DNA of 64,000 nucleotides, from NCBI GenBank assembly GCA_963708235.1, contig OY970200.1, positions 3,223,479-3,287,478 on the forward strand, in the 5' to 3' direction. Of the stretch, positions 23,273 through 51,156 are shown piece after piece (positions within the stretch are counted from its first letter, which is position 1; every line of letters starts with the position of its first letter). The notes under the pieces were generated by a model. The model did not search any database, was not told the DNA's origin, and worked only from the letters and a program-made list of their open reading frames with translations. The translations under genes and the position numbers were made by a program. This DNA is from an uncultured Acidimicrobiia bacterium (GTDB lineage Bacteria; Actinomycetota; Acidimicrobiia; Spongiisociales; UBA5794).

Positions 23273-23278
23273 CCCCAA

Positions 23279-37404: not shown

Positions 37405-37865
37405 GCACCTGTCGAGGCTGTGACGCTCGCTGGGCGACAACGCCGCAAGGATTCTGTGTCCCGTGCCAGGACGACCTGCGGTTCATCACCCGCCCCGTCG
37501 CGCACCGCGAACAGTGGCGGCGCGCCATCGCTGGCGGATCGTCGTTCTACCAGGAGATGGCTCAGCGCGGAGTGATCGTCGTCACCGACGCCCCCGCCGA
37601 CAACGCCGAGTGGATCTGCGACTTCTGCAACGACCAGATCCCCATCACAGCCGAACACACCCTGATCCCCCTGATCGGGAGCTACGCCCTCTGCACACCG
37701 TGTGTCACCCGGTTCGACTACTGGCCCGACGCCTGGACCCACCCCGCACCCCGAGCCTGCCTCTGCGACGCATGCCAACTCCCCCTCCAACGACTCGCCC
37801 TCCGCGACCGCATCCACCAACAAGAGCGCTACCAGTCTGAACGTGGTCAGGGACTGGAACGGTGA
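37401..37865 (+). CDS. Cys-rich zinc-ribbon-like hypothetical protein (CRGC, CVPC, CDFC, CTPC, CLCDAC)
   Basis: 154 aa with five CxxC-type pairs. It is translationally coupled between the preceding small gene and VirD4. Confidence 0.5.
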   Translation: MSTCRGCDARWATTPQGFCVPCQDDLRFITRPVAHREQWRRAIAGGSSFYQEMAQRGVIVVTDAPADNAEWICDFCNDQIPITAEHTLIPLIGSYALCTPCVTRFDYWPDAWTHPAPRACLCDACQLPLQRLALRDRIHQQERYQSERGQGLER

Positions 37866-39541
37866 CCGGACCCGCCGCGCCGGGCATCGACGCCGACAAG
37901 GCACTCACCATCGTCGCCGGTGTAGTTGCCGCAGCATGCCTGCTGGTGTGGGCCGCGACGCAGGTCACGGTCCGGTTCGCCAGCGGCGAATGGCATGACA
38001 CGCCGCTCGTCGAGGCACCACGCCTCGCCCTCCACGTCATCCTCTACCCGGACCAGCCCGCCGCCCATGATGTGGTCGAGCCGACCGTGTTCTACGCCAC
38101 GCTGGCGGTCCTCGCCGTCGTGACCTGCGCCGTCTGTGCCGTGGTGTGGCGTGCCGTACGCGACCGGGCACGAAACGACGACGGTGACGACGCCCGGTGG
38201 GCCAAGCCCCGCGACCTCAAACCCCTTCTGGTCCGGCGACCCCAGCCAGGGCGACTCACGCTCGGGACGGTCGAGCGCCGGTTGATCGCCACCGAACAGC
38301 AGCATTCGGTGTGCATCATCGGACCCACCGGCACCGGCAAGACCACCGGGTTCGCCATCCCCGCAATCTCCGAATGGGACGGACCGGTCGTCGCTACCAC
38401 CATCAAAGGCGACCTCCTCCAACCCACCATGGAGCGCCGCTCCCACCAGGGCAACGTGTGGGTCTACGACCCCACCGCAGTCACCGGCCGACCCGCCACA
38501 GGATGGTCACCCCTCGACGCCTGTCATGACTGGCAAGGAGCGCTCCGAATGGGAGCGTGGCTCGTGTCCACCGCCCGGGCCGGCGACCGCGGCGGGCTAC
38601 AAGACGCCGACTTCTGGTACGCCGTCGCTCAAAAACTTCTCGCCCCACTGTTGTACGGCGCCGCCGTGTCCGGCAAGACCATGCGCGACGTGGTCCGCTG
38701 GGTCGACCTCCAAGACGAAACGGAACCGCTCCAGGCGCTGTTCACCACCGGTGAAGCCGACCCGATCCAGGCGTTCAACGCCACCGAGAACCGCGAGGAA
38801 CGCACCCGATCCTCCGCCTACACCACCGCCGAGACGGTGTTGGCTGCGTTCGCTGACCCCGGTGTCCTCGACGCCACCACCAACCCCACCAGGATCACAC
38901 CCGCACAGCTCCTCGACGGCGGGAACCACACCCTCTACGTGTGCGGCCCGCTCGATGAGCAGGCCCGCCTCCGACCCCTCTACACCGCCCTCATCGAAGA
39001 GATGATCTCCGCCATCTACCGCCGCGCCGCACGCCCCGACACCATGCTCACCAAACCGCTCCTCTTGGTCCTCGACGAAGCCGCCAACATCGCACCCCTC
39101 CCCGACCTCGCCCAACTCGCCGCCACCGCCCGCGGCGTCGGAATCCAACTCGTCACCGTATGGCAAGACTTCGCACAGATCCAGGCTCGGTACGGGACGT
39201 TCGCCCCGACCGTGATCAACAACCACCGCGCCAAGGTCGTCCTCTCCGGTGTCTCCGACCCCCCAACTTTGGACTATGTCACACGCCTGATCGGAGACGA
39301 ACGCGTCACCGAGACCTCGATCGCACGGGAAGGCGGCGGCTCGGTGCGCTCCACCACCGAATCCACCCGGCAACGGCCACTCGCCTCCATCGGAGCACTA
39401 CGACAAGCCCCCATCGGAACCGGCGTGCTCGTGTACGGCAACCTCCACCCCGCCCGCATCAAGCTACGCCGACCCCGCCAGCGCATCCCACGACACACGG
39501 ATACCGCCAGACAGCCCGACCTGTTCACGAACCAGATCTAG
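37862..39541 (+). CDS. type IV secretion coupling protein (VirD4/TraG/TraD family)
   Basis: Two N-terminal TM helices, Walker A SVCIIGPTGTGKTT and Walker B LLLVLDEAANI. 559 aa. Confidence 0.8.
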   Translation: MTGPAAPGIDADKALTIVAGVVAAACLLVWAATQVTVRFASGEWHDTPLVEAPRLALHVILYPDQPAAHDVVEPTVFYATLAVLAVVTCAVCAVVWRAVRDRARNDDGDDARWAKPRDLKPLLVRRPQPGRLTLGTVERRLIATEQQHSVCIIGPTGTGKTTGFAIPAISEWDGPVVATTIKGDLLQPTMERRSHQGNVWVYDPTAVTGRPATGWSPLDACHDWQGALRMGAWLVSTARAGDRGGLQDADFWYAVAQKLLAPLLYGAAVSGKTMRDVVRWVDLQDETEPLQALFTTGEADPIQAFNATENREERTRSSAYTTAETVLAAFADPGVLDATTNPTRITPAQLLDGGNHTLYVCGPLDEQARLRPLYTALIEEMISAIYRRAARPDTMLTKPLLLVLDEAANIAPLPDLAQLAATARGVGIQLVTVWQDFAQIQARYGTFAPTVINNHRAKVVLSGVSDPPTLDYVTRLIGDERVTETSIAREGGGSVRSTTESTRQRPLASIGALRQAPIGTGVLVYGNLHPARIKLRRPRQRIPRHTDTARQPDLFTNQI

Positions 39542-39720: not shown

Positions 39721-41034
39721 TCATTTCCGTCCCGGGGGGGACGACTCGTCCGCTCCCTCCCACGGCGACAGCCCCTCTACTGGCGGCGCGTCGTCCTCAC
39801 TCAGCTCCGCCGATTGTTCTGCGAGCGCGACGCTCCACTCGGCTCTGGCCAACAGCTCGTCGAATGTGATGATCTCGGGTTCGGCGAGCTGGCGTCGGTA
39901 GAGCTCAAACGATCGAACCTTGTCGACGTGATCTCCCCCGCCCTCGCCGATCAGCTGCTTGAGGTTGCCTACGACCAGATACGAGCGGGGCCGTACCAAG
40001 TAGGTGAACTGCCCGGGGATCTCGCTGCCGTCGTCTGCGACGGTGGCTATCCGCTCGCCGATGTGGTGCACGGCTCGATGAACGGTGCCGTGAACCTGTG
40101 CGACCGCTCCGGTCAGCTCGGCTGACGGCGCCCAGCACCCGGAGCGGTACTCCCCACCCGCGAGGAGGTCGGTTCGGTGAGTCTTGATCTCAGCGAGGAC
40201 CATGGACCGGATTCGACCAGTCGTCTGGAGGACCGCATCGGACCGCTTGCCGGCACCGGCAATTGAGGAACCGACAATCACCTGCTCGAGCTTCTGTTCG
40301 TCCCAACCGGTCAGGAACAGGGAGCCGAGGCTGTGGCCGAACACCCAGGGGTTCACCTCGAAGAACCGTTGCCACACGCTCTCCGGCCCGGAAGCTTGCC
40401 TAGCCCGCTCATCGAAGTAGGCATCGTCCTCAAGAAGACAGCGGAACTCGGCTACTGCGAGTCGCCGCGCCTGAAGAGCGATGACATCCCTGGCGTTCTC
40501 GTCGCCTTCGATGAGACGTCGGATCCGATTCTCGTCCGATCGGTAGACGCGCTGGAGGGCAGCCGGGTCGGAGAAGAAGTCCCGCAGGACATCATCATCG
40601 ACGTGCACCGTCTGGCCGCCTTCGACGGCGATCGAGTCGATTGACTTGAGGAGGTCGAGCAACTTGCCGACATCCGGCTGCTTGAGGTTGAGCAGGACTT
40701 GGACAGCTCCGCCCTTGCCGGATCCCGGCACGCGCTGGATCCAGAGTTCCTTGACGTTCCCCGGTTCGCGAGCGACCAGTAACTTGACCTGGTAGCGCCC
40801 GGCCGGCGTCGTACGAATGACCCATTCGGATCCATCATCTGATTGCACAACCTTTGACTCAGAATCCGGATCGAACACCTTGTAGATGAAACGCGCGGGA
40901 GTTCCGTCGTCGGCGGAATTGGTCCGCTTGAGATCGAAGGACCGCGACGCGTAGGTGCGGCTGGCGAGTCGACCCTGTGCGTACGTCGTCTCATCCGCAT
41001 CCTCCTTGGAGTCATCCCCCGACTCGGCAGCCAT
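39721..41034 (-). CDS. PD-(D/E)xK-motif nuclease-like protein, candidate Shedu (SduA/DUF4263)-like effector; last gene of the defence operon
   Basis: 437 aa. GKRSDAVLQTTGRIRSMVLAEIKTH gives D-x15-E-x-K, the spacing of a PD-(D/E)xK core. The N-terminal region is variable and charged. The start codon overlaps the hsdR stop (TGATG). The Shedu assignment is from recalled family architecture, not a search. Confidence 0.45.
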   Translation of the reverse strand: MAAESGDDSKEDADETTYAQGRLASRTYASRSFDLKRTNSADDGTPARFIYKVFDPDSESKVVQSDDGSEWVIRTTPAGRYQVKLLVAREPGNVKELWIQRVPGSGKGGAVQVLLNLKQPDVGKLLDLLKSIDSIAVEGGQTVHVDDDVLRDFFSDPAALQRVYRSDENRIRRLIEGDENARDVIALQARRLAVAEFRCLLEDDAYFDERARQASGPESVWQRFFEVNPWVFGHSLGSLFLTGWDEQKLEQVIVGSSIAGAGKRSDAVLQTTGRIRSMVLAEIKTHRTDLLAGGEYRSGCWAPSAELTGAVAQVHGTVHRAVHHIGERIATVADDGSEIPGQFTYLVRPRSYLVVGNLKQLIGEGGGDHVDKVRSFELYRRQLAEPEIITFDELLARAEWSVALAEQSAELSEDDAPPVEGLSPWEGADESSPPGRK

Positions 41035-44000
41035 CAGCTGAGCCCGAGGAAGCGGTCGAAGAAGTCGCCGAGCTTGGCCAGCACGGTTCCCTTCTTGGCG
41101 GCGTGGCCGCCAGCCTGTCCGAAGCGGGAGACCGGCGGGAGGACCTTGGTGATCGCGGTGCCAGCCGATTGGACTGCACCGTCCCGAAAGGCTGCATCTA
41201 CGAAGTCACGGGTGGCCTCCGGGTCAAGGCCCTCCTCGACGATGATGCGGTCGAGCTCTTCGGCGCGCTTCGCCGCGACGAACGCGGTCCACGCCGCGTC
41301 GACCTCGGCGCTGACGGACAGCGACTCCACGAACGCCTGAATGAGGTCCTTCTTGTTGCGGAGCGAGGGGCTCGAGTCGACGGCCCGATCGATGGCAGCG
41401 CGGATCTCCTTGTCCTCGCCGTCACCCCGCGCATCGCGGTAGCGCTCGACGAGCATCAAGATGTAGTCGACGTTGATCTCGACCTGCTTGATCAGCTCGA
41501 TCTCGAAGACGACCTCCTCGTGGATCGGCTCCTTCTCGGCGTCGCGCTCGGTGCGGAACTCCTGGTACAGGTTGAGGTAGACGCTCTGATAGTCCTGCAT
41601 CTCCCGGGGGGTGAGGATCTCGTTGCCGGCGAAGTCGTCGAAGGAACCGAGGATGTTCCGGAGCCGGAGGATGGCGCCGAACAGCGCGATGAATGCCTTC
41701 TGGGCTGCCTCCCCGACGATGCGCTGCCCGAGGGGGAACCCGGCCTGGAGCTCCGCGACCCGCTCGGCGTACTCGTTGTAGTACTCCGCATATGGCTCGA
41801 GGAGCACGATCCCGCGGGCATCCTCGTTGCCGAACAGCGAAATGGCATCGTTGGTCTCCTGCTCCAGGTCCCGGAAGCTGACAATGTTCCCGAACGTCTT
41901 CACAGAGTTGAGGATCCGGTTCGTCCGTGAGTAGGCCTGGACGAGGCCGTGGGCCCGCAGGTTCTTGTCGACCCAGAGCGTGTTGAGCGTCGTGGCGTCG
42001 AATCCGGTGAGGAACATGTTGACGACGATCACGAGGTCGATCTCGCGGCGCTTGATACGCAGCGACAAGTCCTTGTAGTAGTTCTGGAACTTGTCGGCGG
42101 TCGTGTCGAAGCTGGTGCCGAACAGATCGTTGTAGTCCTCGATGGCGTGATCGAGGAACTCTCGGGCGTCGGCGCCGAGGCCCTCGGTCTCGAACTCCTC
42201 CTCGGGCAGCAGGTCGTCCTCGGCCTCATTGGGGGCGAAGCTGTAGATGAGGCCGACCTTCAGGCGTTGGTCCGACGGGAGGTCCCGTTGCTGGAGGGAG
42301 AACTGGTTGTAGTAGCGTCGGGCAGCGTCGATCGACGCGGTGGCCAGAAGGGAGTTGAAGCCCCGCATGCGCTTGCCGGCAACGCTGTAATGCGAGGCGC
42401 GCTTCGTCTTCTGGTCGAAGTGCTCGCAGATATAGGCGACGATCTGCTCGATGCGCTCAGGCGCCAGCAATGCGCTTTCCCTGTCGATCGCACTGACCTG
42501 CTTGTCGGCGATCGACTCGGGCATCTTCACCGTGTTCACATAGTCGATACGGAACGGCAGCACGTTCTTGTCGGTGATGGCATCGACGATCGTGTAGGTG
42601 TGCAGCTTGTCGCCGAACGCCTGCTCAGTCGTCCGTAGCTGCGGGTTGCCCCCGCTCGCCGAGTTGGCGGCGAAGATCGGCGTGCCGGTGAACCCGAAGA
42701 GGTGGTAGCGGCGGAACGCCTTGGTGATCGCGGTGTGCATGTCGCCGAACTGTGATCGGTGGCACTCGTCGAAGATGATCACCACGTGGCCGTCGTAGAT
42801 CGCGTGGCCCTTGTTGGCGGCGATGAAGGTGCTGAGCTTCTGGATCGTGGTGACGATGATCCGGGCTGCCGGGTCCTCCAGCTGCTGCTTGAGGATACGG
42901 GTCGAGGTGTTGGAGGTGGCCGCTCCCTTCTGGAAGCGGTCGTACTCCTGCATGGTCTGGTAGTCGAGGTCCTTGCGGTCAACCACGAACAGCACCTTCT
43001 CGACCCCGGCGAGCTTGCTGGCGAGCTGGGCAGCCTTGAAGCTGGTGAGCGTCTTGCCGGATCCAGTGGTGTGCCAGACGTAACCGCCGCCGGCGACGGT
43101 GCCCCACCGCTTGTAGTTGGAGGCCACCTCGATGCGTCGCAGGATCTGCTCGCTCGCCACGATCTGGTACGGGCGCATCACCAGCAGCATCTGATCGGCG
43201 GTCAGCACGCAGTACCGGGTGAGGATGTTTAGCAGCGTGTGCTTGGCGAAGAACGTCTTGGCGAAGCCGCTCAGGTCCTCAATCGGCTTGTTCGTGGCGT
43301 CGGCCCACCAGCTCGTGAACGCGAAGCTGTTCGACGTCTTGCGCGCCCGCTTGGCGCCCGCCCGCTCACCGAGGTGCTGGGCCCGGACCGTGTTGCTGTA
43401 GTACTTGGTCAACGTGCCGTTGCTGATCACGAATAGCTGCACGTACTCGAACAGCCCCAACCCGGCCCAGAAGCTGTCGCGCTGGTACCGGTCGATCTGA
43501 TTGAACGCCTCGCGGATGTCGACACCGCGGCGCTTGAGCTCGACATGCACCATCGGTAGGCCGTTGACGAGGACGGTGACGTCGTAGCGGTTCGCGTAGT
43601 TGCCCTCGGTCTCGTACTGGTTGATGACTTGGAGCCGGTTGTTGTGGATGTTCGCCTTGTCGATCAGCACGACGTTCTTGGTCGACCCGTCGTCGCGCCG
43701 CAGGAGCTGGACGTGGTCCTCCTGGATGCGGATCGTCTTCTCGACGACGCCGTCTCTGTCTCCGGCAATCCGCTCACGGAAGAACCGCTCCCATTCGGCG
43801 TCTGAGAACGCGATGCCGTTCAGCGCTTCGAGCTGGACGCGCAGGTTGGTGACGAGACCCTCCTCGCTGGTGAGTGTCAGGTAGTCGTAGGCCTGCTCGC
43901 CGAGGATCTCGATCAGGGCGCGCTCTAGGGCGGCCTCCGACTGGTAGCCGCCTTCTTGCGACGGGTCGGCGACGAACTCGGCGACGACGGTGCTCTCGGA

Positions 44001-44045
44001 GCTGACTGCTATCGGCTCGTAACGAGGGACAGCCCCGTCGGTCAC
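41034..44045 (-). CDS. hsdR: type I restriction enzyme R subunit
   Basis: 1003 aa. The N-terminal nuclease region is followed by SF2 helicase motifs (TGSGKTLTSF, DECHR, FGFTGTPI) and the HsdR C-terminal domain. The stop overlaps the downstream start and the start overlaps the hsdS stop. Confidence 0.9.
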   Translation of the reverse strand: MTDGAVPRYEPIAVSSESTVVAEFVADPSQEGGYQSEAALERALIEILGEQAYDYLTLTSEEGLVTNLRVQLEALNGIAFSDAEWERFFRERIAGDRDGVVEKTIRIQEDHVQLLRRDDGSTKNVVLIDKANIHNNRLQVINQYETEGNYANRYDVTVLVNGLPMVHVELKRRGVDIREAFNQIDRYQRDSFWAGLGLFEYVQLFVISNGTLTKYYSNTVRAQHLGERAGAKRARKTSNSFAFTSWWADATNKPIEDLSGFAKTFFAKHTLLNILTRYCVLTADQMLLVMRPYQIVASEQILRRIEVASNYKRWGTVAGGGYVWHTTGSGKTLTSFKAAQLASKLAGVEKVLFVVDRKDLDYQTMQEYDRFQKGAATSNTSTRILKQQLEDPAARIIVTTIQKLSTFIAANKGHAIYDGHVVIIFDECHRSQFGDMHTAITKAFRRYHLFGFTGTPIFAANSASGGNPQLRTTEQAFGDKLHTYTIVDAITDKNVLPFRIDYVNTVKMPESIADKQVSAIDRESALLAPERIEQIVAYICEHFDQKTKRASHYSVAGKRMRGFNSLLATASIDAARRYYNQFSLQQRDLPSDQRLKVGLIYSFAPNEAEDDLLPEEEFETEGLGADAREFLDHAIEDYNDLFGTSFDTTADKFQNYYKDLSLRIKRREIDLVIVVNMFLTGFDATTLNTLWVDKNLRAHGLVQAYSRTNRILNSVKTFGNIVSFRDLEQETNDAISLFGNEDARGIVLLEPYAEYYNEYAERVAELQAGFPLGQRIVGEAAQKAFIALFGAILRLRNILGSFDDFAGNEILTPREMQDYQSVYLNLYQEFRTERDAEKEPIHEEVVFEIELIKQVEINVDYILMLVERYRDARGDGEDKEIRAAIDRAVDSSPSLRNKKDLIQAFVESLSVSAEVDAAWTAFVAAKRAEELDRIIVEEGLDPEATRDFVDAAFRDGAVQSAGTAITKVLPPVSRFGQAGGHAAKKGTVLAKLGDFFDRFLGLS

Positions 44046-45220
44046 CCAGCCTCCTCGAAGGCGAGCAGCCGGTCCCGGTAGTACTCGTACTGAGCCCGCC
44101 GAGCCTTCAGCTCTGCCGGCAGACCAACCGCCGGGTCATTCACCAAGGCGTCGAACTTGTCGAGGGTCGAGACGATTCGCTCCTGCTCGGACATGGACGG
44201 GACCGGAATGCGAACCTGTTTGATGCCGCTCAACGACAGTCGCTTCACCTTGGCCCGGGCGACATATCGACTCTTCTCGATGTGGAATGCAGCAGTCTGG
44301 AGCCAATACGCCACGAACACTGGATTCATCGAGTGTCGGAAGCCGTAGCAGCCATCGTGGATTGCCACTGGCGTTCCTCCGAGCCACGCGGTGGCCTTTC
44401 CGACATCCTCAACGGTCTCCCCGACCTCGGCGATCACGACGTCGCCCGGCTGTGCAAAGCGCAGATTTGGCTCCAGGTCGACGCGCACATGAGTCACGGC
44501 TTCGGTGGTCGAGGTGCCGTACTCGGTGTAGAGCTCTCCGTAGTGGATCGCGGGCAGGCCGTTGGCAACGTAGTCAGCCTTGACGAAGCGACGGCCACGA
44601 TAGATCTCACCCACCTCGCCCAAGGTCATCCACTTGACCTCCCCCCGCTCGTCAGGGAATGTCATCAGCGAGTCGCGGTAGTGCGCGTACTGGCGGCGTC
44701 GGGCTTCCAGCTCCGCATCCAGCTCCGCTTCCAGCTGCCGGAACAAGTCTAAAACTCGGACGATCTCATGCTGGACCTCGATCGGCGGCACGGGGATGCG
44801 GAAGTGGGAGTACGTCGAGATCCACTGTCTGGCGTGATCCTTAGGTGAGTAACGAATCAGCTGCATGGCGTACCAGACGAATCTCATCGTCGTCGGCGCC
44901 CCCGGGCGCAGGGTCAGCATCTTCATGGCTGAGGACTTCGCCTTGAACGGGAAGTAGACCCATTTGAAGGCTGTGGTGAAGTCGTCGAAGATTACAACTG
45001 GGCTGTTCGGCGTGGCCGCGTAGATCCCATCGACCTCGTTGGTGTGGCCCAGGACGAATGTTTGACCCGCCGTCAGCACCGGAGTCGAGTATTCATCGCG
45101 GTAAGCGGTCGAGGTCACGAGGTACTTCGTCGGCTGCTCATAGGCCAGCAGTTCCCCGAGGGTTTGGTACTCGACACCGTTCGGGCAGTGTTGGCGGATG
45201 AGGTCGTCGATGTGGCTCAC
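44042..45220 (-). CDS. hsdS: type I restriction-modification specificity subunit (two target-recognition domains)
   Basis: GTG start overlapping the Mrr stop (GTGA). Two TRDs are separated and followed by conserved coiled-coil repeats (LDLFRQLEAELDAELEARRRQYAHYRDSL; LDKFDALVNDPAVGLPAELKARRAQYEYYRDRLL). The first 191 codons of the track ORF are antisense junk. Confidence 0.85.
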   Translation of the reverse strand: MSHIDDLIRQHCPNGVEYQTLGELLAYEQPTKYLVTSTAYRDEYSTPVLTAGQTFVLGHTNEVDGIYAATPNSPVVIFDDFTTAFKWVYFPFKAKSSAMKMLTLRPGAPTTMRFVWYAMQLIRYSPKDHARQWISTYSHFRIPVPPIEVQHEIVRVLDLFRQLEAELDAELEARRRQYAHYRDSLMTFPDERGEVKWMTLGEVGEIYRGRRFVKADYVANGLPAIHYGELYTEYGTSTTEAVTHVRVDLEPNLRFAQPGDVVIAEVGETVEDVGKATAWLGGTPVAIHDGCYGFRHSMNPVFVAYWLQTAAFHIEKSRYVARAKVKRLSLSGIKQVRIPVPSMSEQERIVSTLDKFDALVNDPAVGLPAELKARRAQYEYYRDRLLAFEEAG

Positions 45221-46125
45221 GTGAAGAAGTCCTCGTCGATCTCGACGACGCGGTAGGTGCGCTCGACCTGGACGCCGACGCCGTACTCGATCATCAGCTC
45301 GGTGAGCCGCTGACCGTCGATAAGGATGACGCGGGTCGGCACCGATCGTGCGTACTCGACGGCGCCCGGACTGAAACGGCTGGTGGTGATGAACACGCCG
45401 CCGTCGGCCTTGCCGCTGAGTGCTCCGACGAAGCCCTGCACTTCCGGCCGCTGCACGTTGTTGGTCGTTGAGTAGCGCTTCGCCTGGACGTAGACCTTGC
45501 CGAGGCCCAGTACGTCCTGGTCGATCACACCGTCGATGCCGCCGTCGTTGTAGTCGGTGGTGACGCCCCGCCCGCCGGCACCGCCGTAGCCCATAGCGAG
45601 GAGCAGCTTGACCACAGCACTCTCGAAGAACGCTGGGTCCTGCTCGACCAGACGCGACAGCAGCTCGGACGCCACCTCTTCGTGAATGCGAGCAACGCCC
45701 TGCTCGACCTGCTCGGTGGGATCGAGGTTGGTGACCGCCGTGTCGAGTGGCTGGGGCTCCTCTCCGCTCGTCGACGACTTGGAGAGCCACCACTCGTCGC
45801 CTTCCTTGGCGATCGCCCTCAGGTCGTTCTCCGTGATACCGCCTTGGTGTTTCAGCAGCAGCTCCCGTCCGAGGTCGGTGATCACGTACTGGCCGCGACT
45901 CGGCCGGTGCAGCGCGTCGACCCGGTTCAGATACGAGGCAGCCCAGCCAATCCGGTTGTCAGCCCGGCTTTGACCGGAGGGCAGAGTGTCCGCTCGCTGA
46001 TCCGCGGTGAGCCCGACGACGTCGGCCACGTCGAGCCGAAGCTGGCGCAGTGCCCGAGTTGCGCCGTCCGTTAGTACGGTCAGGATCGGGACGGTGAACC
46101 CCTCCCAGGTCGGCATGTCGCTCAT
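45217..46125 (-). CDS. mrr: Mrr-like (type IV, modification-dependent) restriction endonuclease: Mrr_N winged helix plus Mrr catalytic domain
   Basis: The N-terminus WEGFTVPILTVLTDG...IGWAASYLNRVDAL is Mrr_N-like. The C-terminal core is GGIDGVIDQD...VYVQAKRY...VFITTSRFS (PD-(D/E)xK of the Mrr_cat family). ATGA overlap with hsdM. Confidence 0.75.
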   Translation of the reverse strand: MSDMPTWEGFTVPILTVLTDGATRALRQLRLDVADVVGLTADQRADTLPSGQSRADNRIGWAASYLNRVDALHRPSRGQYVITDLGRELLLKHQGGITENDLRAIAKEGDEWWLSKSSTSGEEPQPLDTAVTNLDPTEQVEQGVARIHEEVASELLSRLVEQDPAFFESAVVKLLLAMGYGGAGGRGVTTDYNDGGIDGVIDQDVLGLGKVYVQAKRYSTTNNVQRPEVQGFVGALSGKADGGVFITTSRFSPGAVEYARSVPTRVILIDGQRLTELMIEYGVGVQVERTYRVVEIDEDFFT

Positions 46126-47684
46126 CGGTCCGAGCTTTCCAGGTCGGCGACGATCTCGTCGATGGCGGTGCGTAGCTCGTGCTGGCGTTCAACGATTTGG
46201 GCGATCTCGGCGTTGAGCCCGACGATGTCGACCGCGACGCGGATGTCCTGCGCCTCGACGTAGGAGGCGACCGAGAGGTTGTAGTCGTTCGCCGCGATCT
46301 CGGAGTTGTCGACGAGCCGTGCGAAGTGGTCGGCGTCGTCTCGCGCGATGAAGGCGTCGAGGACCGCCTGCTGGTTGTCGTCGGTGAGCTTGTTCTTGTT
46401 GCCACCGCGGACGAACTGTGCGGACGCGTCGATGAAGAGCGTCGTGCTGTCGGCCTTCGACTTCTTGAGGATGATGACGCAGGTGGCGATCGTGGTGCCG
46501 AAGAAGAGGTCGGGCGGGAGCTGGATCACGGTGTCGACGTAGTTGTTGTCGATGAGGTACTTGCGAATCTTCTGTTCAGCGCCGCTGCGGTAGAGCACGC
46601 CGGGGAACTCGACGATCGCCGCTGTTCCGTTGACGGCGAGCCAGCTCAGTATGTGCATGGTGAAGGCCAGGTCGGCCTTGCTCTTCGGGGCAAGCACGCC
46701 GGCGGGGGCATAACGGGGGTCGTTGATGAGCAGCGGGTTGGCGTCGCCCTCCCATTTCGTGGAGTACGGCGGGTTGGAGACGATCGCCTCGAACGGTTCG
46801 TCGTCCCAGTGCGCCGGGTCGGTGAGCGTGTCGCCGTGCGCGATGTCGAACTTCTCGAAGTTGATGTCGTGGAGGAACATGTTGATCCGGCACAGGTTGT
46901 AGGTAGTGAGGTTGATCTCCTGGCCGAAGAAGCCCTGCCGCACGTTGTCGCGACCGAGCACCTTGGCGAACTTGAGCAGCAGCGAGCCGGAGCCGCATGC
47001 CGGGTCGTAGACCTTGTTCACCTCCGTCTTGCCGACCACGGTCATCCGGGCGAGCAGCTCCGACACCTCTTGGGGCGTAAAGAACTCGCCGCCGGACTTT
47101 CCGGCGCCCGAGGCGTACATCGTCATCAGGTACTCGTAGGCGTCGCCGAACGCGTCGATCGTGTTGTCGGCGAAGTCCCCGAGCGAGAGATCCCCGATCG
47201 CGTAGAGCAGCTTCGCGAGCTTCTCATTGCGCTTGGCGACAGTAGGCCCGAGCTTGGAGCTGTTGACGTCAAGGTCGTAGAACAGGCCCTTGAGGTCATC
47301 CTCGCTGTCACTGCCAACCGCCGAGCCCTCGATGTGGTGGAACACCCGCTCGAGGGTCTCATTCAGGTTCTCGTCGCCCTTGGCGCGGCGCCGCACGTTG
47401 ACGAAAAGCTCGCTGGGCAGGATGTAGAAGCCCTTCTCGCTGACGGTTTCGGTCCTGCCGAACTCGGCGTCGTCATCGGCGAGGCTCGCGTAGTCGAAGT
47501 CCGACGTGCCGGCCTTTCGTTCGTGGTCGTTGAGGTAGGCGGCGAGGTTCTCCGAGATGAACCGGTAGAAGAGCATTCCGAGCACGTACTGCTTGAAATC
47601 CCAGCCGTCGACGCTGCCGCGAAGGTCGTTGGCGATCCGCCAGATCGTCTTGTGCAACTCCGCGCGTTGCGCTTCTTTCGTCAT
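46122..47684 (-). CDS. hsdM: type I restriction-modification N6-adenine DNA methyltransferase subunit
   Basis: The start is set at MTKEAQRAELHKTIWRIANDLRG after GAGGTGGGGG. Motif I is YDPACGSGSLLL, motif IV is NPPYS, and the HsdM N-terminal helical domain is present. Confidence 0.9.
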   Translation of the reverse strand: MTKEAQRAELHKTIWRIANDLRGSVDGWDFKQYVLGMLFYRFISENLAAYLNDHERKAGTSDFDYASLADDDAEFGRTETVSEKGFYILPSELFVNVRRRAKGDENLNETLERVFHHIEGSAVGSDSEDDLKGLFYDLDVNSSKLGPTVAKRNEKLAKLLYAIGDLSLGDFADNTIDAFGDAYEYLMTMYASGAGKSGGEFFTPQEVSELLARMTVVGKTEVNKVYDPACGSGSLLLKFAKVLGRDNVRQGFFGQEINLTTYNLCRINMFLHDINFEKFDIAHGDTLTDPAHWDDEPFEAIVSNPPYSTKWEGDANPLLINDPRYAPAGVLAPKSKADLAFTMHILSWLAVNGTAAIVEFPGVLYRSGAEQKIRKYLIDNNYVDTVIQLPPDLFFGTTIATCVIILKKSKADSTTLFIDASAQFVRGGNKNKLTDDNQQAVLDAFIARDDADHFARLVDNSEIAANDYNLSVASYVEAQDIRVAVDIVGLNAEIAQIVERQHELRTAIDEIVADLESSDR

Positions 47685-47802
47685 CCCCCACCTCGTGACG
47701 AGCATCCGAGTCCGGCTGAGGGCAGGGTAGTCCCGGGTGCCGTTGGGCCAGGTGCTACCGAGCTCAAGGACTGAGGAACACGCTCCTTCGGAGCGGGGAG
47801 GC

Positions 47803-48390
47803 TCACTCTGGCCCCGCAGCATGCTGAGCGAAGAACAAGTCGATCTCGAGTGCTCGCAGTTCCGTCAAGTAGGCCTGCACCTGCCTCACCTTCAGGATGG
47901 CATCGTCAAATCCCTTGAGCATCGTCGCCGCATGTTGCTGACGACCGATCCCCGGAAGCGGGATCTCAAGGCTCGCCAACGCGCGGTAGCTGAGCCTGGG
48001 CATCGTCGTTCCCGACGTGTGGCGGTCGACCTGGTCGCGAAACTGAGTTGATTGAGTCCAGACGTAGATCCACGCACCTGCGATCTCGGGTCCGGGCCGA
48101 ATCAGAGCGCATTCGCGTCCGAGGAGTGCACCGGCGTGTTGTGACGTGACCAGAGCAGACCGCCCGATCTTGCTCATCAGGGCCACCACGACATCTCCCT
48201 CCGCCAGAAGGACAGGGTCGCCCGCCGCGAGGTCGGGCTCGACCAGCCGGGGAGCGACAGGCCCGTCAAGGGCGAGTTCAGCGAGTCCGAAGAACGGTAT
48301 CCCATCGTCAGTCTGGGTGGGCTTCGCCGGGACAGTCCCGCGACGGATCTCAGCGACATCCCCGAGGGTTCTACCTAAGATCGTGCTCAC
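47803..48390 (-). CDS. single-TRD (half) HsdS-like specificity protein
   Basis: 195 aa. LGDVAEIRRGTVPAKPTQTDDGIPFFGLAELA... is a TRD start, and the C-terminal conserved helix is LKVRQVQAYLTELRALEIDLF. Only one TRD is present. The GTG start overlaps the upstream methyltransferase stop (GTGA). Confidence 0.65.
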   Translation of the reverse strand: MSTILGRTLGDVAEIRRGTVPAKPTQTDDGIPFFGLAELALDGPVAPRLVEPDLAAGDPVLLAEGDVVVALMSKIGRSALVTSQHAGALLGRECALIRPGPEIAGAWIYVWTQSTQFRDQVDRHTSGTTMPRLSYRALASLEIPLPGIGRQQHAATMLKGFDDAILKVRQVQAYLTELRALEIDLFFAQHAAGPE

Positions 48391-49949
48391 TGGTCGCCTC
48401 CGGTATCCAGACGGGCGACTAGCCGCTCCACCGCGTCGCTGGCGGCCACCGACGCGGCCGGTATGAGGGACCGCAACTCGGCAGCACGTTGCCGGGTCCT
48501 CTCGACGTTCGTCACCGAGACCGGGCGATACCGCGGGGGCTCGATGATCGCATCATTGGCGAGAAGGTCGTCCGTGCTGACGACCCACGCGACCTCTGTG
48601 TCTTCCAGCTCTCCGTGCTCATACGTCCGCACGACATGAGCGATCCGCTCGATGTCTGCCTCCTCGAATGAGTGAAGGGAGCGCCCAGTAGTGCCGAGTC
48701 CTGAGGCGTCGACCAGCAGCACGTCGTGTTTCGGTGCGGGCGACCTCAGAATCCAGAGGACCAGCGCAATCGAGGTGTTGGGACGCAGGCGGGTTGGGAG
48801 CTGGATAACCGCGTCCACCACTCCCGCCTTCAGCATCGACCGCCGGACGTTGGCTTCGCTTCCGCCTCGGAATGTTGCTCCTGGCGTCGTCACCGCCACG
48901 GCACGACCTCCATCCCGCAGGCACCCGATGGCGACCTGCAACCAGGCGAGATCTCCACTTCGGCGAGGCGGCACCCCGAACCGCCAACGGGCATCGAGGT
49001 AGACGTCTGCATCACCCCAGTCCGACATGTTGAGCGGGGGGTCGAGCAGGACTACGTCTGCCTTCGGCAGTTCGTCTGCCGGGACTCGGAAGACGTCGCC
49101 TGGGCGAAGGTCGGCCGCAACGTCATAGAGAAAAAAGCGGGATCTAGCGATTCGGAGCACGCCCTGGTTGACCTCGTACCCGATCAGATCGGTGGCCGAG
49201 GACTGGTCCGGGTGGATGGCTGCTGACAGGAGGAGCCCACCTTCGCCGCTGGCGGGATCAAGGACGGTGCCACCACGGTGTCCTGCGAGTCGGACCATCA
49301 GCTCAGTGATGTCGCTGGGGGTAGAGGACTCACCCCTGAATCGATCGACGTCGCTCGCTCGCGAGACAACCTCCTCGAACAGGGCGAAGTAGGGCGTCTC
49401 GTCGTGGGCTGCCCGTTCCAGGCTGTCGATCAGACGAGGCAGCACCTGCCCACCGACGAGGGATGCCTTGGATAGCCCAGGGACCAAGAGACCTTCGAGT
49501 GGCGGGTTGGCACGTTCGATATCTTCTGCCGCATGGAGCAGGGCGTCGGCCAGAGCGTCCGGTGAGGTTCGGCGAACCTGGTGCCAGCGCGCCGCATCCG
49601 GGACGGTCAGTTCGGAGGCGCTGTGAGGCCGCAGGACCGACGGCTCCTCGGACGCCTGCAGATAGACGAGCACCGCTGTTAGGAAATCCGTGGTGTCTTC
49701 AGCGAAGAGCGTGTCCCGCAGGGTGTCGGCCAGGGACCAGAGCTCGTATGCCGCTGGCACATGGCCGTTGATCTTGCCCTTCTCGATCAGCCAGCGCTCG
49801 ACCTCTCGTAGGTCGAACTCGCCGCTGAAGTTGGGGACGGGAAAGTCGTCGTGGCGCTTCCGCCAATTCCCGACTGCGGATCGACTAACGCCAGCGATAT
49901 CGGCGATCTGTTGGATGTCGAGAGTCACCCGCGACGACACGTCGCTCAC
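48387..49949 (-). CDS. N6-adenine DNA methyltransferase (gamma-class, HsdM-like core) with an N-terminal excisionase/MerR-type HTH
   Basis: The N-terminus MSDVSSRVTLDIQQIADIAGVSRSAVGNWRKRH is an HTH. Motif I is VLDPASGEGGLLL. Motif IV is the variant LLDPPLNMSDW (DPPL instead of NPPY/F). 520 aa. ATGA overlap with the upstream NYN gene. Confidence 0.7.
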   Translation of the reverse strand: MSDVSSRVTLDIQQIADIAGVSRSAVGNWRKRHDDFPVPNFSGEFDLREVERWLIEKGKINGHVPAAYELWSLADTLRDTLFAEDTTDFLTAVLVYLQASEEPSVLRPHSASELTVPDAARWHQVRRTSPDALADALLHAAEDIERANPPLEGLLVPGLSKASLVGGQVLPRLIDSLERAAHDETPYFALFEEVVSRASDVDRFRGESSTPSDITELMVRLAGHRGGTVLDPASGEGGLLLSAAIHPDQSSATDLIGYEVNQGVLRIARSRFFLYDVAADLRPGDVFRVPADELPKADVVLLDPPLNMSDWGDADVYLDARWRFGVPPRRSGDLAWLQVAIGCLRDGGRAVAVTTPGATFRGGSEANVRRSMLKAGVVDAVIQLPTRLRPNTSIALVLWILRSPAPKHDVLLVDASGLGTTGRSLHSFEEADIERIAHVVRTYEHGELEDTEVAWVVSTDDLLANDAIIEPPRYRPVSVTNVERTRQRAAELRSLIPAASVAASDAVERLVARLDTGGDQ

Positions 49950-50419
49950 GCCGACTCCAGCGGCAGACGGACATCAGCGATGAGGGACGGCAGCAGTTCA
50001 TGGCGGTGAGATGCCAGCCGCAAGGCCGCGGACAGGCTCTCGGGCCGGGAAACCACTGTAACAGTGACGCCAGCAGCGCCGAGGGAGGCGACCGCACTGG
50101 CGAAGATCCCGTCGCCGGAAGCGACATGAACGAAGCCGAACCGCCGTGCTACGTCCTCCGAAGCGATGACCTCGAGAAGTGCAAGATCGGCTCCGTTGGC
50201 ACCCGAGCGGAGCAAGAGTCGGGCCTCGGGCCACTCCCACGCGACTGCGTGGACGGCATGGTGACTGCAGGCAACGACGACCAGGTCGCTAACGCCGACG
50301 AAGGCCGACTCATACAGATCCCTGCAATCCCTCACCTCCTCGGCTGTAGGACTGGCGGTGCCAGTCAGGTTCTCGATGTCGATGAGATGGAGCGTTCGCC
50401 CCCGATGTGGTCTAATCAT
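49946..50419 (-). CDS. NYN-domain (PIN-like) nuclease family protein; first gene of the defence operon
   Basis: LHLIDIENL (N-terminal Asp), GANGADLALLEVIAS and FVHVASGDGIFASAVASLGAAGVTVTVVS match the three conserved NYN/LabA blocks in order. Confidence 0.6.
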   Translation of the reverse strand: MIRPHRGRTLHLIDIENLTGTASPTAEEVRDCRDLYESAFVGVSDLVVVACSHHAVHAVAWEWPEARLLLRSGANGADLALLEVIASEDVARRFGFVHVASGDGIFASAVASLGAAGVTVTVVSRPESLSAALRLASHRHELLPSLIADVRLPLESA

Positions 50420-50446
50420 ACCTTTAGCTTACGTCACGACAGTTGT

Positions 50447-50473
50447 GATGTCAATGCACATTCAATGTGACAT
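50447..50473. promoter_or_regulatory. nested palindrome GATGTCA-N13-TGACATC (inner CACATT-C-AATGTG) about 30 bp upstream of the NYN gene start; candidate operator or promoter of the defence operon
   Basis: The dyad symmetry sits in a locally AT-rich stretch just 5' of the first gene of the 8-gene operon. Confidence 0.35.
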
Positions 50474-51156
50474 CTGGCACAGGAGTTGTGTTGGAATCCT
50501 ACACGACGCAGGCTCTGGGGGAACCGCCTCAGCCGATGTCTAGACCTGGCATTTCCCGCTGCGGGCCGCGGCGTTGCATCTCCTCGATCTCGCGAGTTGC
50601 TGGTCCGAGGTAGGCGACCCGCCTTGCGTCCTCCAGCTACTGCGCCGCTCGATCACGATCATCGAAGATGAGTTCGGCCACGTCGCTGCTGCATCGCGAA
50701 CCACCGTCCCCGACTCGATGGCAGGGTCGTCGGCTCCGTCGTTGGCAAGTACCTTCCGAGAACGTCGCGAGCCTCGTCGAGGTCGTCGGCGACGACGAGC
50801 ACCCGGTTCTCCTGCCGGAGGCCGGGCAGGTCGAGTTCGGCGGCACCCTCATCGCAGACGCAATCTCCGTGCTGCAGGTCTGCTGCTGCTCTGCCAGCGG
50901 CGCCGCGGACCGCTCCTGGACAAGCCGGCGGTCACATGCGACACGTTCACCGAGATCGAGATCAACCCCCAGCGCTCGATCAAACTGACAAGCGAACTCC
51001 TATGCTCTCGCCGTGTTGCTCACGGAGGTCGCGCAGCTGGCGGGCGAGATGTCGATCCGACGGTGCCGATCATGAAGCTTGACGAAACACCGCCGCTCTC
51101 CTTGTTGTCGTCACAGAGGACGTGCCAACCACTGGGCTCCACAGTTGTGAGGTGCG

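Follow-up and report, generated by a model that had tools for sequence, protein, structure and literature searches.

A conserved NYN, methyltransferase and half-HsdS leader module heads a mosaic type I restriction-modification cluster on an actinobacterial integrative element

An eight-gene defence cluster of an uncultured Acidimicrobiia bacterium opens with a conserved, apparently undescribed module of three genes (G1 to G3), which accompanies type I restriction in many actinobacteria. Judging from gene neighbourhoods, this leader module is a stable evolutionary partner of type I restriction-modification (R-M) operons from several families. For the cluster as a whole, we lean slightly towards a mosaic reading, in which known systems, each autonomous, are combined with a leader module that regulates itself and may guard type I restriction in the manner of Ronin or PrrC. 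The recurrence of the trio 5' of R-M genes, the conserved promoter/operator and the variable cargo slots go beyond what a preliminary description of the locus had reported. Coordinates are given in Table 1, where the window is the whole stretch of 64,000 nucleotides that was analysed.

Table 1. Features of the defence cluster and its flanks in the window.
Feature	Position	Strand	Remarks
T4CP (VirD4/TraG-like coupling protein)	37862..39541	+	T4SS-DNA_transf E 4.6e-39 and TraG-D_C
Defence cluster, eight genes	39721-50419	-	Cargo region of a T4SS-type integrative element
G8, Shedu nuclease SduA, 437 aa	39721..41034	-	Coupled to hsdR stop by TGATG
G7, HsdR, EcoR124/type IC-like, 1003 aa	41034..44045	-	Intact motifs
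G6, full-length two-TRD HsdS, 392 aa	44042..45220	-	GTG start 45220
G5, Mrr-type type IV (modification-dependent) endonuclease	45217..46125	-	Between hsdM and hsdS
G4, canonical HsdM, 520 aa	46122..47684	-	TIGR00497 739 bits, cut-off 243
Intergenic spacer, leader module to hsdM	47685..47802	-	118 nt; sole gap in the cluster
G3, single-TRD ("half") HsdS, 195 aa	47803..48390	-	Methylase_S E 2.3e-9, one stretch
G2, HsdM-like N6-adenine-type methyltransferase, 520 aa	48387..49949	-	N6_Mtase E 1.5e-46
G1, NYN nuclease fold (MARF1/LabA-like, PIN-like), 157 aa	49946..50419	-	First gene
Predicted promoter/operator	50426..50474	-	Conserved; TGTGAC-TTGACA-TCACAG
TrwC-type relaxase/helicase	51157..54279	-	TrwC E 3e-75 and AAA_30

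The ORF check recovered all eight genes on the minus strand, and re-reading each junction agreed with the preliminary description, which had given overlapping junctions and one 118-bp gap before hsdM. The overlaps were tallied as six of 4 nt and one of 1 nt. Those itemised are five of 4 nt, namely GTGA (read on the minus strand) at G1/G2 (49949-49946), G2/G3 (48390-48387), mrr/hsdS (45220-45217, so that hsdS starts at the GTG) and hsdS/hsdR (44045-44042), and ATGA at hsdM/mrr (46125-46122), together with one of 1 nt, TGATG at hsdR/sduA (41036-41032). Such a succession of stop/start overlaps is characteristic of operons with translational coupling and not of chance. A scan for terminator-like sites on the minus strand found none, and the cluster looks co-transcribed, probably as a single transcript. 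The 118-nt spacer could not be aligned between loci, had no match in an Rfam search and gave an RNA fold z-score of +0.61; it is a module boundary and itself not a conserved element. The ATG of hsdM at 47684 is preceded by aggtggggg. GC3 is 0.71-0.91 and exceeds GC2 in all eight ORFs, the coding pattern expected for a genome of about 67% GC. Three GC3 classes are found within the cluster (0.71-0.76, 0.79-0.84 and 0.91), which shows a recent mosaic origin.

That the cluster lies on a mobile element is supported by its flanks. The T4CP gene is convergent with its 3' end, the TrwC gene lies directly upstream in the same orientation, and genes for VirB4-like, TcpC-like, SLT/M23 and ArdC-primase proteins are found further to the left. 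A TrwC gene adjoins the leader module also in L001, L003, L011, L013, L014, L016, L018, L087 and L105.

All eight family assignments stood. HsdM (N6_Mtase E 4e-112, HsdM_N) carries NPPY as motif IV. HsdS matches PADLOC Specificity_I over residues 4-392 (E 1.2e-101), with Methylase_S in two stretches. HsdR (PADLOC REase_I 1168 bits, TIGR00348 559 bits) comprises HSDR_N, SWI2_SNF2, T1R_D3-like and EcoR124_C domains and retains its nuclease motif (D...ELK) intact, alongside Walker A (TGSGKT) and a DECH box. G2 is not needed to make up a full HsdM/HsdS/HsdR set. Mrr shows Mrr_N (E 4e-22), Mrr_cat (E 3.7e-31) and a D...QAK motif, and matches PADLOC mREase_IV (E 1.2e-70). For G8, the evidence is stronger than the Shedu-like PD-(D/E)xK call made beforehand: it is a genuine full-length SduA of the Shedu (DUF4263) family (SduA_C E 2.9e-32; PADLOC PDLC00394 E 5.3e-133, residues 13-408), whose RefSeq homologues carry the name "Shedu immune nuclease family protein". 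Both G5 and G8 are ordinary full-length members of their families and differ from them in placement only: G5 lies within a type I operon and G8 behind one, both with translational coupling.

In the leader module, G1 had no significant match in PADLOC-DB v2.0.0. It has the NYN fold with invariant acidic residues, and structurally it is closest to RNases and regulators (MARF1, LabA-like VPA0982). G2 reaches only 76.6 bits against the hsdM model TIGR00497 (cut-off 242.75) and shares 31% identity with G4 over 232 residues. At its N-terminus is a winged HTH (about residues 9-56), which is sub-threshold in Pfam (HTH_17, E 5.5e-4) and whose residues 9-54 match PADLOC mad1 (E 5e-5). In the AF2 model (pLDDT 88.5) the N-terminus folds as strand-helix-helix-wing-helix and the C-terminus forms a long helix; the best Foldseek matches of the model are PacII M1/M2 and HsdM chains (E 1e-26 to 1e-16). 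Motif I reads DPASGEGG. The variant motif IV noted earlier, DPPL, proved real on motif analysis: Leu replaces the aromatic residue throughout the window clade, more distant family members retain DPPY/F, and D-P-P is invariant. G3 matches PADLOC Specificity_I (E 2.7e-20), and many relatives carry a G3-type S as a C-terminal fusion to the G2-type methyltransferase (about 718 aa).

In 20 of 23 informative loci, inspection of other genomes revealed a six-gene scaffold: NYN, HTH-methyltransferase and half-S (sometimes fused), followed by a complete type I R-M. The order NYN, HTH-methyltransferase (S separate or fused), hsdM, hsdS, hsdR was found in L001, L005, L006, L007/L086, L008, L009, L011/L088, L015-L018, L022, L058 and L087; this order recurs on RefSeq plasmids from Corynebacterium glutamicum and from Mycolicibacterium alvei and in the metagenome loci L105, L106, L153 and L161. 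The scaffold spans Acidimicrobiia, Mycobacteriales, Bifidobacteriaceae, Nocardioides and others. Several type I families supply the partner R-M, with EcoR124_C in the window, EcoEI_R_C in L086 and L088, the two-methylase M1M2 type in L001, L005, L022, L058 and L153, and R-S-M gene order in L006 and L018. Across loci, G1 is better kept (50-75% identity) than G2 (37-62%). No methyltransferase lies downstream of about 42 of the 61 metagenomic G1 homologues, and some of these 42 stand 5' of DISARM-like systems, other helicase systems or genes outside defence; the NYN protein is therefore not strictly dependent on the M'S' pair. HTH-methyltransferase-S fusions also occur 5' of type I R-M without a NYN gene (L054, L065, L074, L082), and in two loci, L012 and a Rhodococcus plasmid, the NYN-methyltransferase pair occurs without type I R-M.

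The sequence upstream of G1 contains a predicted promoter, in which 17 nt separate a -35 box TTGACA (50454-50449) from a -10-like TAAGCT (50431-50426). The latter ends 6 nt 5' of the G1 ATG, which makes a leaderless mRNA likely. Half-sites of the TGTGA/TCACA type lie on both sides of the -35 box and include the inverted repeat GATGTCA/TGACATC (50447-50453 and 50468-50474). The block TGTG(A/C)nTTGACATCACA is found exactly 5' of G1 in L001-L006, L010, L013 and L018, and aligned or as variants in L008, L011, L012, L014-L016 and L087, among loci whose proteins share only 40-62% identity. It was seen only where the HTH-methyltransferase is present, and was not found upstream of the 42 G1 homologues without methyltransferase. 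A generic sigma-70 scan made no call at this promoter; its promoter/operator role is a prediction.

The two additional nucleases behave differently from the scaffold. Among about 165 loci anchored on NYN or HTH-methyltransferase genes, no Mrr or SduA homologue and no second instance of the exact eight-gene order was found, and the order thus looks strain-specific. The idea that the eight genes form one conserved system does not survive this result. Close Mrr homologues also occur as stand-alone genes, and the closest SduA homologues stand alone. Elsewhere the corresponding slots are filled by SIR2-like (SIR2_2), PIN, GmrSD, HNH, kinase, AIPR or AAA ATPase (AAA_15/21) genes. By this comparison, Mrr and SduA are interchangeable cargo in two insertion slots, one of them 3' of hsdR. 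It had also been suggested that two systems are stacked here. Stacking holds, but the trio is not merely beside the R-M, since it recurs directly upstream of type I R-M.

The combination described here was not found in the published literature searched. The eight genes had earlier not been recognised as a described system; the gene order is indeed unmatched in the loci compared, whereas most of the parts are well known. There is documented precedent for Mrr inserted into type I R-M or attached to it, and for accessory genes within type I operons generally (PMC11411939; bioRxiv 10.1101/2024.01.29.577857; PMC5100572). Examples are the type IV system TgvAB, which sits inside a type I R-M of V. 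cholerae VPI-2 (PMC11411939), and the PrrC and HEPN RNases embedded in R-M operons (PMC3710099). Such operons (EcoPrrI/PrrC, TgvAB, DarTG2 in the EPEC RptR island, "guilt-by-embedding" of Payne et al. 2024) are among the closest known systems. As in them, hsdM/hsdS/hsdR is interrupted by a defence gene (here Mrr, type IV like TgvAB), then followed by Shedu, and the embedded genes differ between related loci; unlike these precedents, the host of the window cluster is an actinobacterial ICE. In a type I R-M/DarTG island, the leading position is taken by a repressor, RptR, which has a conserved operator (PMC12255303). A regulator and operator are likewise predicted at the 5' end in the window, where the 5' element is a three-gene module (NYN, HTH-fused HsdM-like methyltransferase, half-S) instead of a small repressor.

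Ronin consists of ronA, hsdS and hsdM without hsdR, is triggered by Ocr/ArdA, is linked to composite type I/type IV R-M or to BREX, and does not need its methyltransferase activity or catalytic motif (Silas et al., bioRxiv 10.1101/2023.04.06.535777). Like the leader module, it has a small effector gene tightly linked to an HsdM/HsdS pair without its own HsdR, the pair usually adjoins a composite type I/type IV R-M, and the upstream non-coding DNA is functionally important in Ronin, a further likeness. RonA, however, is a 61-aa membrane-helix peptide and G1 a soluble NYN fold of 157 aa; the N-terminal HTH is additional in G2, and the S of the window cluster's leader module is half-size. The two systems share no sequence relationship. 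HEC-09 (Payne et al. 2024) resembles G1 in its NYN/MARF1-like fold, conserved aspartates and attachment to a methylase/helicase defence system; unlike G1, it has an additional N-terminal HTH-like domain and is embedded in Hma systems rather than leading them. Alone, it gives no defence (Payne et al. 2024). Non-canonical M1M2S type I systems such as PacII (PMC5100572, PMC9613975) also have two different HsdM-like genes in one cluster; G2 finds its best structural matches in PacII M1/M2, and M1M2SR systems sit 3' of the leader module in the five M1M2-type loci above. In contrast to them, G2 has its own half-S and HTH, and DPPL rather than NPPF/NPPY.

In the mosaic reading, defence would be layered. 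The EcoR124-type R-M would methylate a bipartite site and cut unmethylated incoming DNA, Mrr between hsdM and hsdS would cut DNA bearing foreign methylation, a stand-alone Shedu nuclease would have been added behind hsdR, and the 5' leader module would contribute the NYN RNase-fold protein, the HTH HsdM-like methyltransferase and the half-size HsdS. The mRNA of the module would be leaderless, from the conserved TTGACA/TAnnnT promoter, and auto-repressed via the TGTGA/TCACA half-sites, with the HTH of G2 as the proposed binder. An M'2S'2-type complex may be both sensor and partner of the NYN nuclease, like HsdMS for RonA or EcoPrrI for PrrC: blocking of type I enzymes by an invader's DNA mimic would free the NYN nuclease, which would degrade RNA and abort infection or transfer. 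Such a guard function is suggested by analogy. It is favoured by G1 being better kept than G2 and translationally coupled to it, and by the loss of the motif IV aromatic in the window clade, given that methyltransferase activity is dispensable in Ronin. Against the mosaic-with-guard reading count the G1 family being wider than the module, the HTH-methyltransferase-S genes without NYN, the two NYN-methyltransferase pairs without type I R-M, the GC3 differences, the HTH being sub-threshold with a recognition helix nearly unchanged across loci of differing upstream DNA, and, by analogy, the lack of defence by HEC-09 alone.

Given the DPPY/F of distant members, the methyltransferase is possibly active, in which case the module might merely add a second methylation specificity. 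It would then be an HsdR-less type I-like methyltransferase (M'2S'2, palindromic site), autoregulated by the HTH, whose extra m6A mark might shield the element or host from other restriction or act epigenetically, the NYN protein being an unrelated small regulator or housekeeping RNase co-transcribed by happenstance. The intact AdoMet motif I, the invariant D-P-P, the superposition of the G2 model on active HsdM/PacII M subunits, the half-S or fused S that completes an M-S unit, the many methyltransferase-free contexts of G1 homologues and the NYN-free fusions all agree with this. We nevertheless regard it as rather unlikely, because it leaves unexplained why 20 of the 23 informative loci have the pair directly 5' of complete type I R-M from unrelated families, why G1 is coupled to G2 and better conserved than it, and why motif IV has Leu across the window clade. 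That the trio is its own minimal R-M, with M'S' recruiting the NYN protein to unmethylated sites as a DNA-cleaving subunit in place of HsdR, is very improbable: structurally, the closest relatives of G1 are RNases and regulators, its 157 aa include no translocase or DNA-binding extension, the degenerate DPPL would leave self DNA unprotected, and G1 homologues exist without any methyltransferase.

The cluster might also be no functional unit, but a chance pile-up of independently acquired defence genes in a cargo hotspot, with tight junctions reflecting selection for compactness only. The three GC3 classes, the stand-alone relatives of Mrr and SduA, their absence from all related loci and the non-conserved spacer fit this reading. 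It is improbable in view of the overlapping junctions (tallied as seven of eight), the absence of minus-strand terminator-like sites, the conserved promoter/operator and the recurrence of the six-gene scaffold across taxa with different R-M families.

Eight consecutive open reading frames on the minus strand fill positions 39721–50419: G1 (NYN protein), G2 (HTH-methyltransferase), G3 (half-S), G4 (HsdM), G5 (Mrr), G6 (HsdS), G7 (HsdR) and G8 (SduA). They were found by reading the sequence, and in eight out of eight GC3 exceeds GC2, the coding signature expected at about 67% GC. The preliminary description had reported stop/start overlaps and one 118-bp gap between these genes, and reading of every junction confirmed this (see the table). 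The GTGA junction between mrr and hsdS places the hsdS start at GTG 45220, and a Shine-Dalgarno-like aggtggggg stands ahead of the hsdM ATG. The gap was considered as a regulatory RNA or conserved element and rejected, being unconserved, unstructured (z +0.61) and unmatched in Rfam; across related loci the spacer between the leader module (G1–G3) and the restriction-modification (R-M) genes measures 56–264 nt, with neither sequence nor structure conserved. Opposite hsdM, hsdR and sduA, the plus strand contains long ORFs reaching 531 aa (46179–47774, 40977–41930 and similar); none passes the GC3 test as a gene, and they are artefacts of high GC. A generic promoter/terminator scan called no promoter at the cluster and no terminator-like site on the minus strand inside it. 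A GC-rich hairpin, GACCGG-CGCG-CCGGTC, lies just past the sduA stop, between the convergent sduA and coupling protein genes; it lacks a T-run, and its folding does not surpass that of shuffled sequences (z −0.71), which leaves it a weak terminator candidate at best.

Junctions of the eight genes and features flanking them, in window coordinates
Feature	Sequence or type	Position	Strand	Remark
G1/G2 junction	GTGA	49949–49946	minus	read directly
G2/G3 junction	GTGA	48390–48387	minus	read directly
G3/hsdM junction	118-nt gap	47802–47685	minus	precedes hsdM ATG at 47684
hsdM/mrr junction	ATGA	46125–46122	minus	read directly
mrr/hsdS junction	GTGA	45220–45217	minus	read directly
hsdS/hsdR junction	GTGA	44045–44042	minus	read directly
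hsdR/sduA junction	TGATG	41036–41032	minus	read directly
Hairpin past sduA	GC-rich	39689–39714		weak candidate terminator
Type IV coupling protein gene		37862–39541	plus	flanks cluster
TrwC relaxase gene		51157–54279	minus	flanks cluster
tRNA-Asp and tRNA-Phe	tRNA genes	23067–23274		beside GC dip
GC dip	GC 0.63–0.64	23000–27000
ArdC_N-primase/Toprim fusion		26569–28842		first conjugation-related gene
Secretion ATPase	T2SSE-type	57901–59367		right of relaxase
Membrane protein	T2SSF-type	60224–61132		right of relaxase

Five of the eight are defence genes of the textbook kind; on these alone, the locus would be an ordinary one. Searches of Pfam, NCBIfam and PADLOC bore out the earlier identification of a canonical hsdM, hsdS and hsdR together with Mrr. 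G4 scored 739 bits on the hsdM equivalog TIGR00497 (cut-off 243), with HsdM_N, an N6_Mtase core and motif IV NPPY. G6 is a two-TRD HsdS (PADLOC Specificity_I, E 1.2e-101, residues 4–392; two Methylase_S stretches), and G7 an HsdR with an N-terminal PD-(D/E)xK nuclease region (HSDR_N), an SF2 motor (SWI2_SNF2/ResIII), and T1R_D3-like and EcoR124_C (E 3.6e-71) regions, whose nuclease and ATPase motifs (D..ELK, TGSGKT, DECH) are intact. These features make the set a type I system of the EcoR124/IC-like kind, which would methylate specific sites as m6A and use ATP to restrict unmethylated DNA. G5 matches the winged-helix domain Mrr_N (E 4e-22), the PD-(D/E)xK-type domain Mrr_cat (E 3.7e-31) and PADLOC mREase_IV (E 1.2e-70), and carries its D...QxK motif as DGVID...VQAKR. 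The nuclease gene coupled to hsdR, which had been called Shedu-like, proved to be genuine Shedu, with a PADLOC SduA match along its full length (E 5.3e-133, residues 13–408), the Pfam SduA_C domain (E 2.9e-32) and a D...ExK motif, RSDAV...LAEIK; RefSeq labels its homologues, which occur as stand-alone genes, “Shedu immune nuclease family protein”. Type I enzymes restrict unmethylated DNA, Mrr restricts foreign-methylated DNA, and Shedu is an additional DNA nuclease. From this family knowledge, the three layers of the window would act in these ways.

Conservation of the cluster was assessed with two anchors: a G2-anchored search (141 protein homologues, 80 genome loci, Logan/JGI contigs) and a G1-anchored search (80 metagenome loci, PLSDB plasmids). 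The full eight-gene order was not found in the G2-anchored genome loci and contigs, in the G1-anchored metagenome loci or in the PLSDB plasmids; none of the G1- or G2-anchored loci held Mrr or SduA homologues, which came only from loci fetched with Mrr or SduA queries. Among plasmids, the nearest relatives of these two genes stand alone or in other arrangements, for example hsdR-hsdM-hsdS-mrr in Acetobacter. The eight-gene order is thus not a conserved combination. Stacking, the other possibility raised in the preliminary description, does apply, since known systems are stacked on the element; a novel eight-gene unit does not, its order having turned up in none of the loci searched.

A shorter scaffold is conserved. 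NYN, HTH-methyltransferase and half-S genes (the latter two separate, or fused into a protein of about 718 aa), followed by a complete type I R-M, are present in 20 of the 23 loci with enough downstream sequence. These are L001, L005, L006, L007/L086, L008, L009, L011/L088, L015–L018, L022, L058 and L087, RefSeq plasmids of Corynebacterium glutamicum (p48A) and Mycolicibacterium alvei, and the metagenome loci L105, L106, L153 and L161. The three exceptions are L012, L010, which is unclear, and a plasmid of Rhodococcus that has a P-loop-like protein in place of the R-M. The trio, earlier suggested as a possible system of its own, recurs in these loci as a conserved leader module; a guard function for it is suggested by analogy and is discussed below. 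A TrwC gene lies near many scaffold loci, not all. The R-M partners differ: EcoR124_C type in the window, EcoEI_R_C in L086 and L088, a two-methylase M1M2 type in L001, L005, L022, L058 and L153, and an R-S-M gene order in L006 and L018. The module is therefore tied to type I restriction in general rather than to any single lineage.

The positions of Mrr and SduA are held by other genes in relatives. After hsdR we found a SIR2-like gene (L001), an AAA_15/21 ATPase (L087), a PIN protein (L088), GmrSD (L086), DUF222-HNH (L008) and Ser/Thr kinases (L065 and L074, the former with TPR repeats), and between hsdS and hsdR an AIPR gene (L082). Mrr and Shedu are therefore interchangeable cargo of two insertion slots. 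The cluster is also mosaic in composition: GC3 is 0.71–0.76 in G1, G2, G3 and sduA (0.71–0.74 in the trio alone), 0.79–0.84 in mrr and hsdS, and 0.91 in hsdM and hsdR, with 0.79–0.83 in the backbone genes of the integrative conjugative element. The lower values of the trio relative to hsdM and hsdR, a pattern repeated in most related loci, indicate modular assembly. Presence of Mrr and Shedu in such slots fits the documented embedding habit of type I operons, exemplified by PrrC, an RNase that a type Ic R-M keeps inactive as long as no phage peptide blocks restriction (PMC3710099), and by TgvAB, defence genes embedded in a type I operon (PMC11411939). The hosting of embedded defence genes by type I operons has been termed “guilt-by-embedding” (bioRxiv 10.1101/2024.01.29.577857; a similar remark is made in PMC5100572). 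The island as such, with its defence genes embedded in or stacked beside one another on a mobile element, is of an ordinary kind, and the leader module varies a known theme, that of type I R-M operons with accessory, guard or regulatory genes. Taken together, the locus is likely a mosaic of known systems joined to a conserved, probably self-regulated leader module serving type I restriction.

In the leader module, G1 is the shakiest family assignment, falling under the gathering threshold of Pfam NYN (PF01936; 20.1 bits versus 24.2), but it is rescued by homologues, invariant residues and fold. Many of its 659 homologues match Pfam NYN, and its orthologue in L022 passes the threshold with 33.7 bits. 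Residues D14, E16, N17, D45, H53, D78, S101-G-D103 and F106 are invariant in the family, and the protein adopts a PIN-like alpha/beta fold whose nearest solved structures are NYN domains, with a conserved acidic pocket. The initial call of an NYN nuclease is thus supported at the level of family, nuclease activity being predicted. No model in PADLOC-DB v2.0.0 matched G1. A weak match suggesting that HEPN replaces NYN in L040 (E 8e-4, below the gathering score) was set aside. G1-like NYN proteins of a second subfamily have an N-terminal extension, an ordinary GAAGGAGG ribosome-binding site and no TGTGA/TCACA operator; their genes come first in other restriction-type operons of soil metagenomes, where they lead a DrmE_C and a DEAD/Helicase_C protein in a DISARM-like set (L125:2338–10784), an SNF2 helicase with a 1378-aa MmeI/Eco57I-type methylase (L174:7459–16621), or a 2068-aa kinase-helicase-MZB-REase protein (L134:435–8209). 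Other members of this subfamily adjoin non-defence genes.

G2 is an HsdM-like N6_Mtase (E 1.5e-46) that reaches only about 77 bits on the hsdM equivalog versus a cut-off of 243. In its AF2 model (pLDDT 88.5), a strand-helix-helix-wing-helix unit (residues 9–56) forms the N-terminus and a long helix the C-terminus of a protein with an HsdM core. The HTH is sub-threshold in Pfam (HTH_17, E 5.5e-4); its fold is present in the model, and its sequence is nearly invariant across the family alignment (A16...NWRKR...F36-P37). G3 is a single-TRD HsdS. Profiles for N6_Mtase and HsdS, and for the HTH the predicted structure, thus agree with the pairing of an HTH-methyltransferase and a half-S first read from the sequence. 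The variant motif IV was also confirmed: DPPL occurs in 18 of 32 sequences and DPPY/F in distant ones, and the stacking aromatic is replaced by Leu throughout the window clade. Methylases of the HTH-MTase-S type are commonly found in defence islands. Fusions of this type stand right before hsdM-hsdS-hsdR, with no NYN gene, in L054, L065, L074 and L082 (about 9900–20500 in each), from Streptomyces, Actinopolymorpha, Nocardia and Planosporangium. In L033 (14733–21449, Kibdelosporangium) a Wadjet-like set lies downstream of a distant HTH-MTase-S gene, and consists of a DUF3375/JetA-like gene of 490 aa followed by genes of 224, 1133 and 391 aa.

Upstream of G1 the window reads ATGTCACATTGAATGTGCA-TTGACA-TCACAACTGTCGTGACG-TAAGCT-aaaggt-ATG. 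This corresponds to a conserved block, TGTG(A/C)n-TTGACA-TCACA(G), a GTGAC half-site, TAnnnT, about 6 nt and ATG, matched exactly in L001–L006, L010, L013 and L018 and as close variants in L008, L011, L012, L014–L016, L087 and L105. Loci sharing the block encode proteins only 40–62% identical, and their flanking DNA is unalignable. Upstream of 42 G1 homologues without a methyltransferase the block is absent, and an ordinary GAAGGAGG ribosome-binding site is found. The distance from promoter to ATG implies a predicted leaderless G1 mRNA, with putative operator half-sites bracketing the −35. Since nothing in the conserved module but the HTH of G2 is predicted to bind DNA, we infer that the module may be autoregulated by this HTH through the operator, in a C-protein/RptR-like logic; such controllers combine an HTH encoded at the operon head with a conserved operator over the promoter (for RptR, a 5′ controller of an R-M operon, see PMC12255303). 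Co-variation of HTH and operator across loci gave no convincing signal, because the recognition helix is almost invariant even where the upstream DNA differs.

Comparison with known systems turned up no description of the module. PADLOC matches to mad1, mad2 and mad5 suggested MADS, which was rejected: MAD2 scored 22.3 bits against a cut-off of 720 and MAD5 36.9 against 400, and the other mad genes are absent. The best solved structural matches of G2 in Foldseek were PacII M1/M2 and other HsdM chains, which suggested a PacII-type heterodimeric methylase of G2 and G4. PacII-type M1M2S systems have two highly similar adjacent M genes (NPPF, NPPY) and one shared two-TRD S (PMC5100572, PMC9613975), whereas G2 and G4 are 31% identical over 232 residues and G2 has its own half-S and DPPL; this reading was therefore rejected for the window. 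The M1M2 feature is found in the downstream R-M of the two-hsdM relatives, which the PacII type explains. Nothing relevant came from a full-text literature search for NYN combined with type I R-M or N-6 methylase, and the RefSeq labels of the module genes are generic (“NYN domain-containing protein”, “N-6 DNA methylase”).

The functional precedents nearest to the leader module are PrrC, described above, and Ronin, a small effector gene with hsdS and hsdM and without hsdR, usually adjoining composite type I/type IV R-M or BREX, in which HsdMS masks the toxicity of the effector, Ocr or ArdA triggers cell killing and methylase activity is dispensable (bioRxiv 10.1101/2023.04.06.535777). Likewise, the G2–G3 pair has no R subunit of its own and lies beside a type I system with an embedded Mrr. 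RonA is an effector of about 61 aa with a predicted transmembrane helix, whereas G1 is a 157-aa soluble NYN fold, so the module is not a member of Ronin and is its analogue in architecture and proposed logic only. By this analogy, the leader module might be an unnamed decoy or guard of type I restriction, widespread in Actinomycetota, which we consider rather unlikely. A catalytically degenerate (DPPL) methyltransferase-specificity complex would serve as decoy for DNA-mimic anti-restriction proteins; its binding would free a MARF1-like NYN RNase, and infection or plasmid establishment would be aborted, while the fused HTH would auto-repress the leaderless operon via the TGTGA/TCACA operators. 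NYN proteins would then be generic back-up effectors for restriction-type systems, DISARM-like ones included.

Several observations fit such a guard: the methyltransferase and half-S have no HsdR of their own; the tie to type I R-M looks obligate whatever the R-M family; the motif IV aromatic is Leu in the whole window clade; and G1, of RNase fold with an invariant acidic pocket, is translationally coupled to the methyltransferase and better conserved than it (50–75% identity across loci versus 37–62%). The main rival explanation takes G2 for a plain second methyltransferase and the NYN protein for an unrelated partner. Against the guard, about two thirds of the metagenomic G1 homologues have no methyltransferase downstream, some lying beside non-defence genes, HTH-MTase-S fusions also stand before type I R-M sets that have no NYN gene, and HEC-09, a MARF1-like NYN protein embedded in Hma systems, gave no protection alone (bioRxiv 10.1101/2024.01.29.577857).

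What makes the locus significant is the conserved NYN/HTH-methyltransferase/half-S module together with its operator, rather than the combination of eight genes: these three genes, with their own promoter/operator, accompany several type I families across Actinomycetota, and their presence on plasmids of cultivable Corynebacterium and Mycolicibacterium makes them directly testable in such hosts. If the guard reading were true, decoy immunity, so far represented by Ronin in E. coli, would gain a new phylum and a new class of effector; the recurrence of MARF1-like NYN proteins beside methylation-based defences would be explained, with a bearing on the genetic tractability of actinobacteria and on competition between conjugative elements. 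Should the module instead be a self-regulated second methyltransferase, the list of type I variants would gain a modest entry.

A T4SS-type integrative conjugative element of a high-GC actinobacterium carries the cluster as cargo. The cluster's location on a mobile element, proposed from the sequence, is substantiated by the flanking coupling protein and TrwC genes and by conjugation genes to the left (VirB4-like, TcpC-like, SLT/M23, ArdC-primase). No integrase was present among the ORFs scanned in the window. Two tRNA genes lie beside a GC dip, in a region that may mark one of the ends at which the element integrated; the first conjugation-related gene, the ArdC_N-primase/Toprim fusion, is just to its right. 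Right of the relaxase, the T2SSE- and T2SSF-type genes resemble a Tad/type IV pilus-like set.
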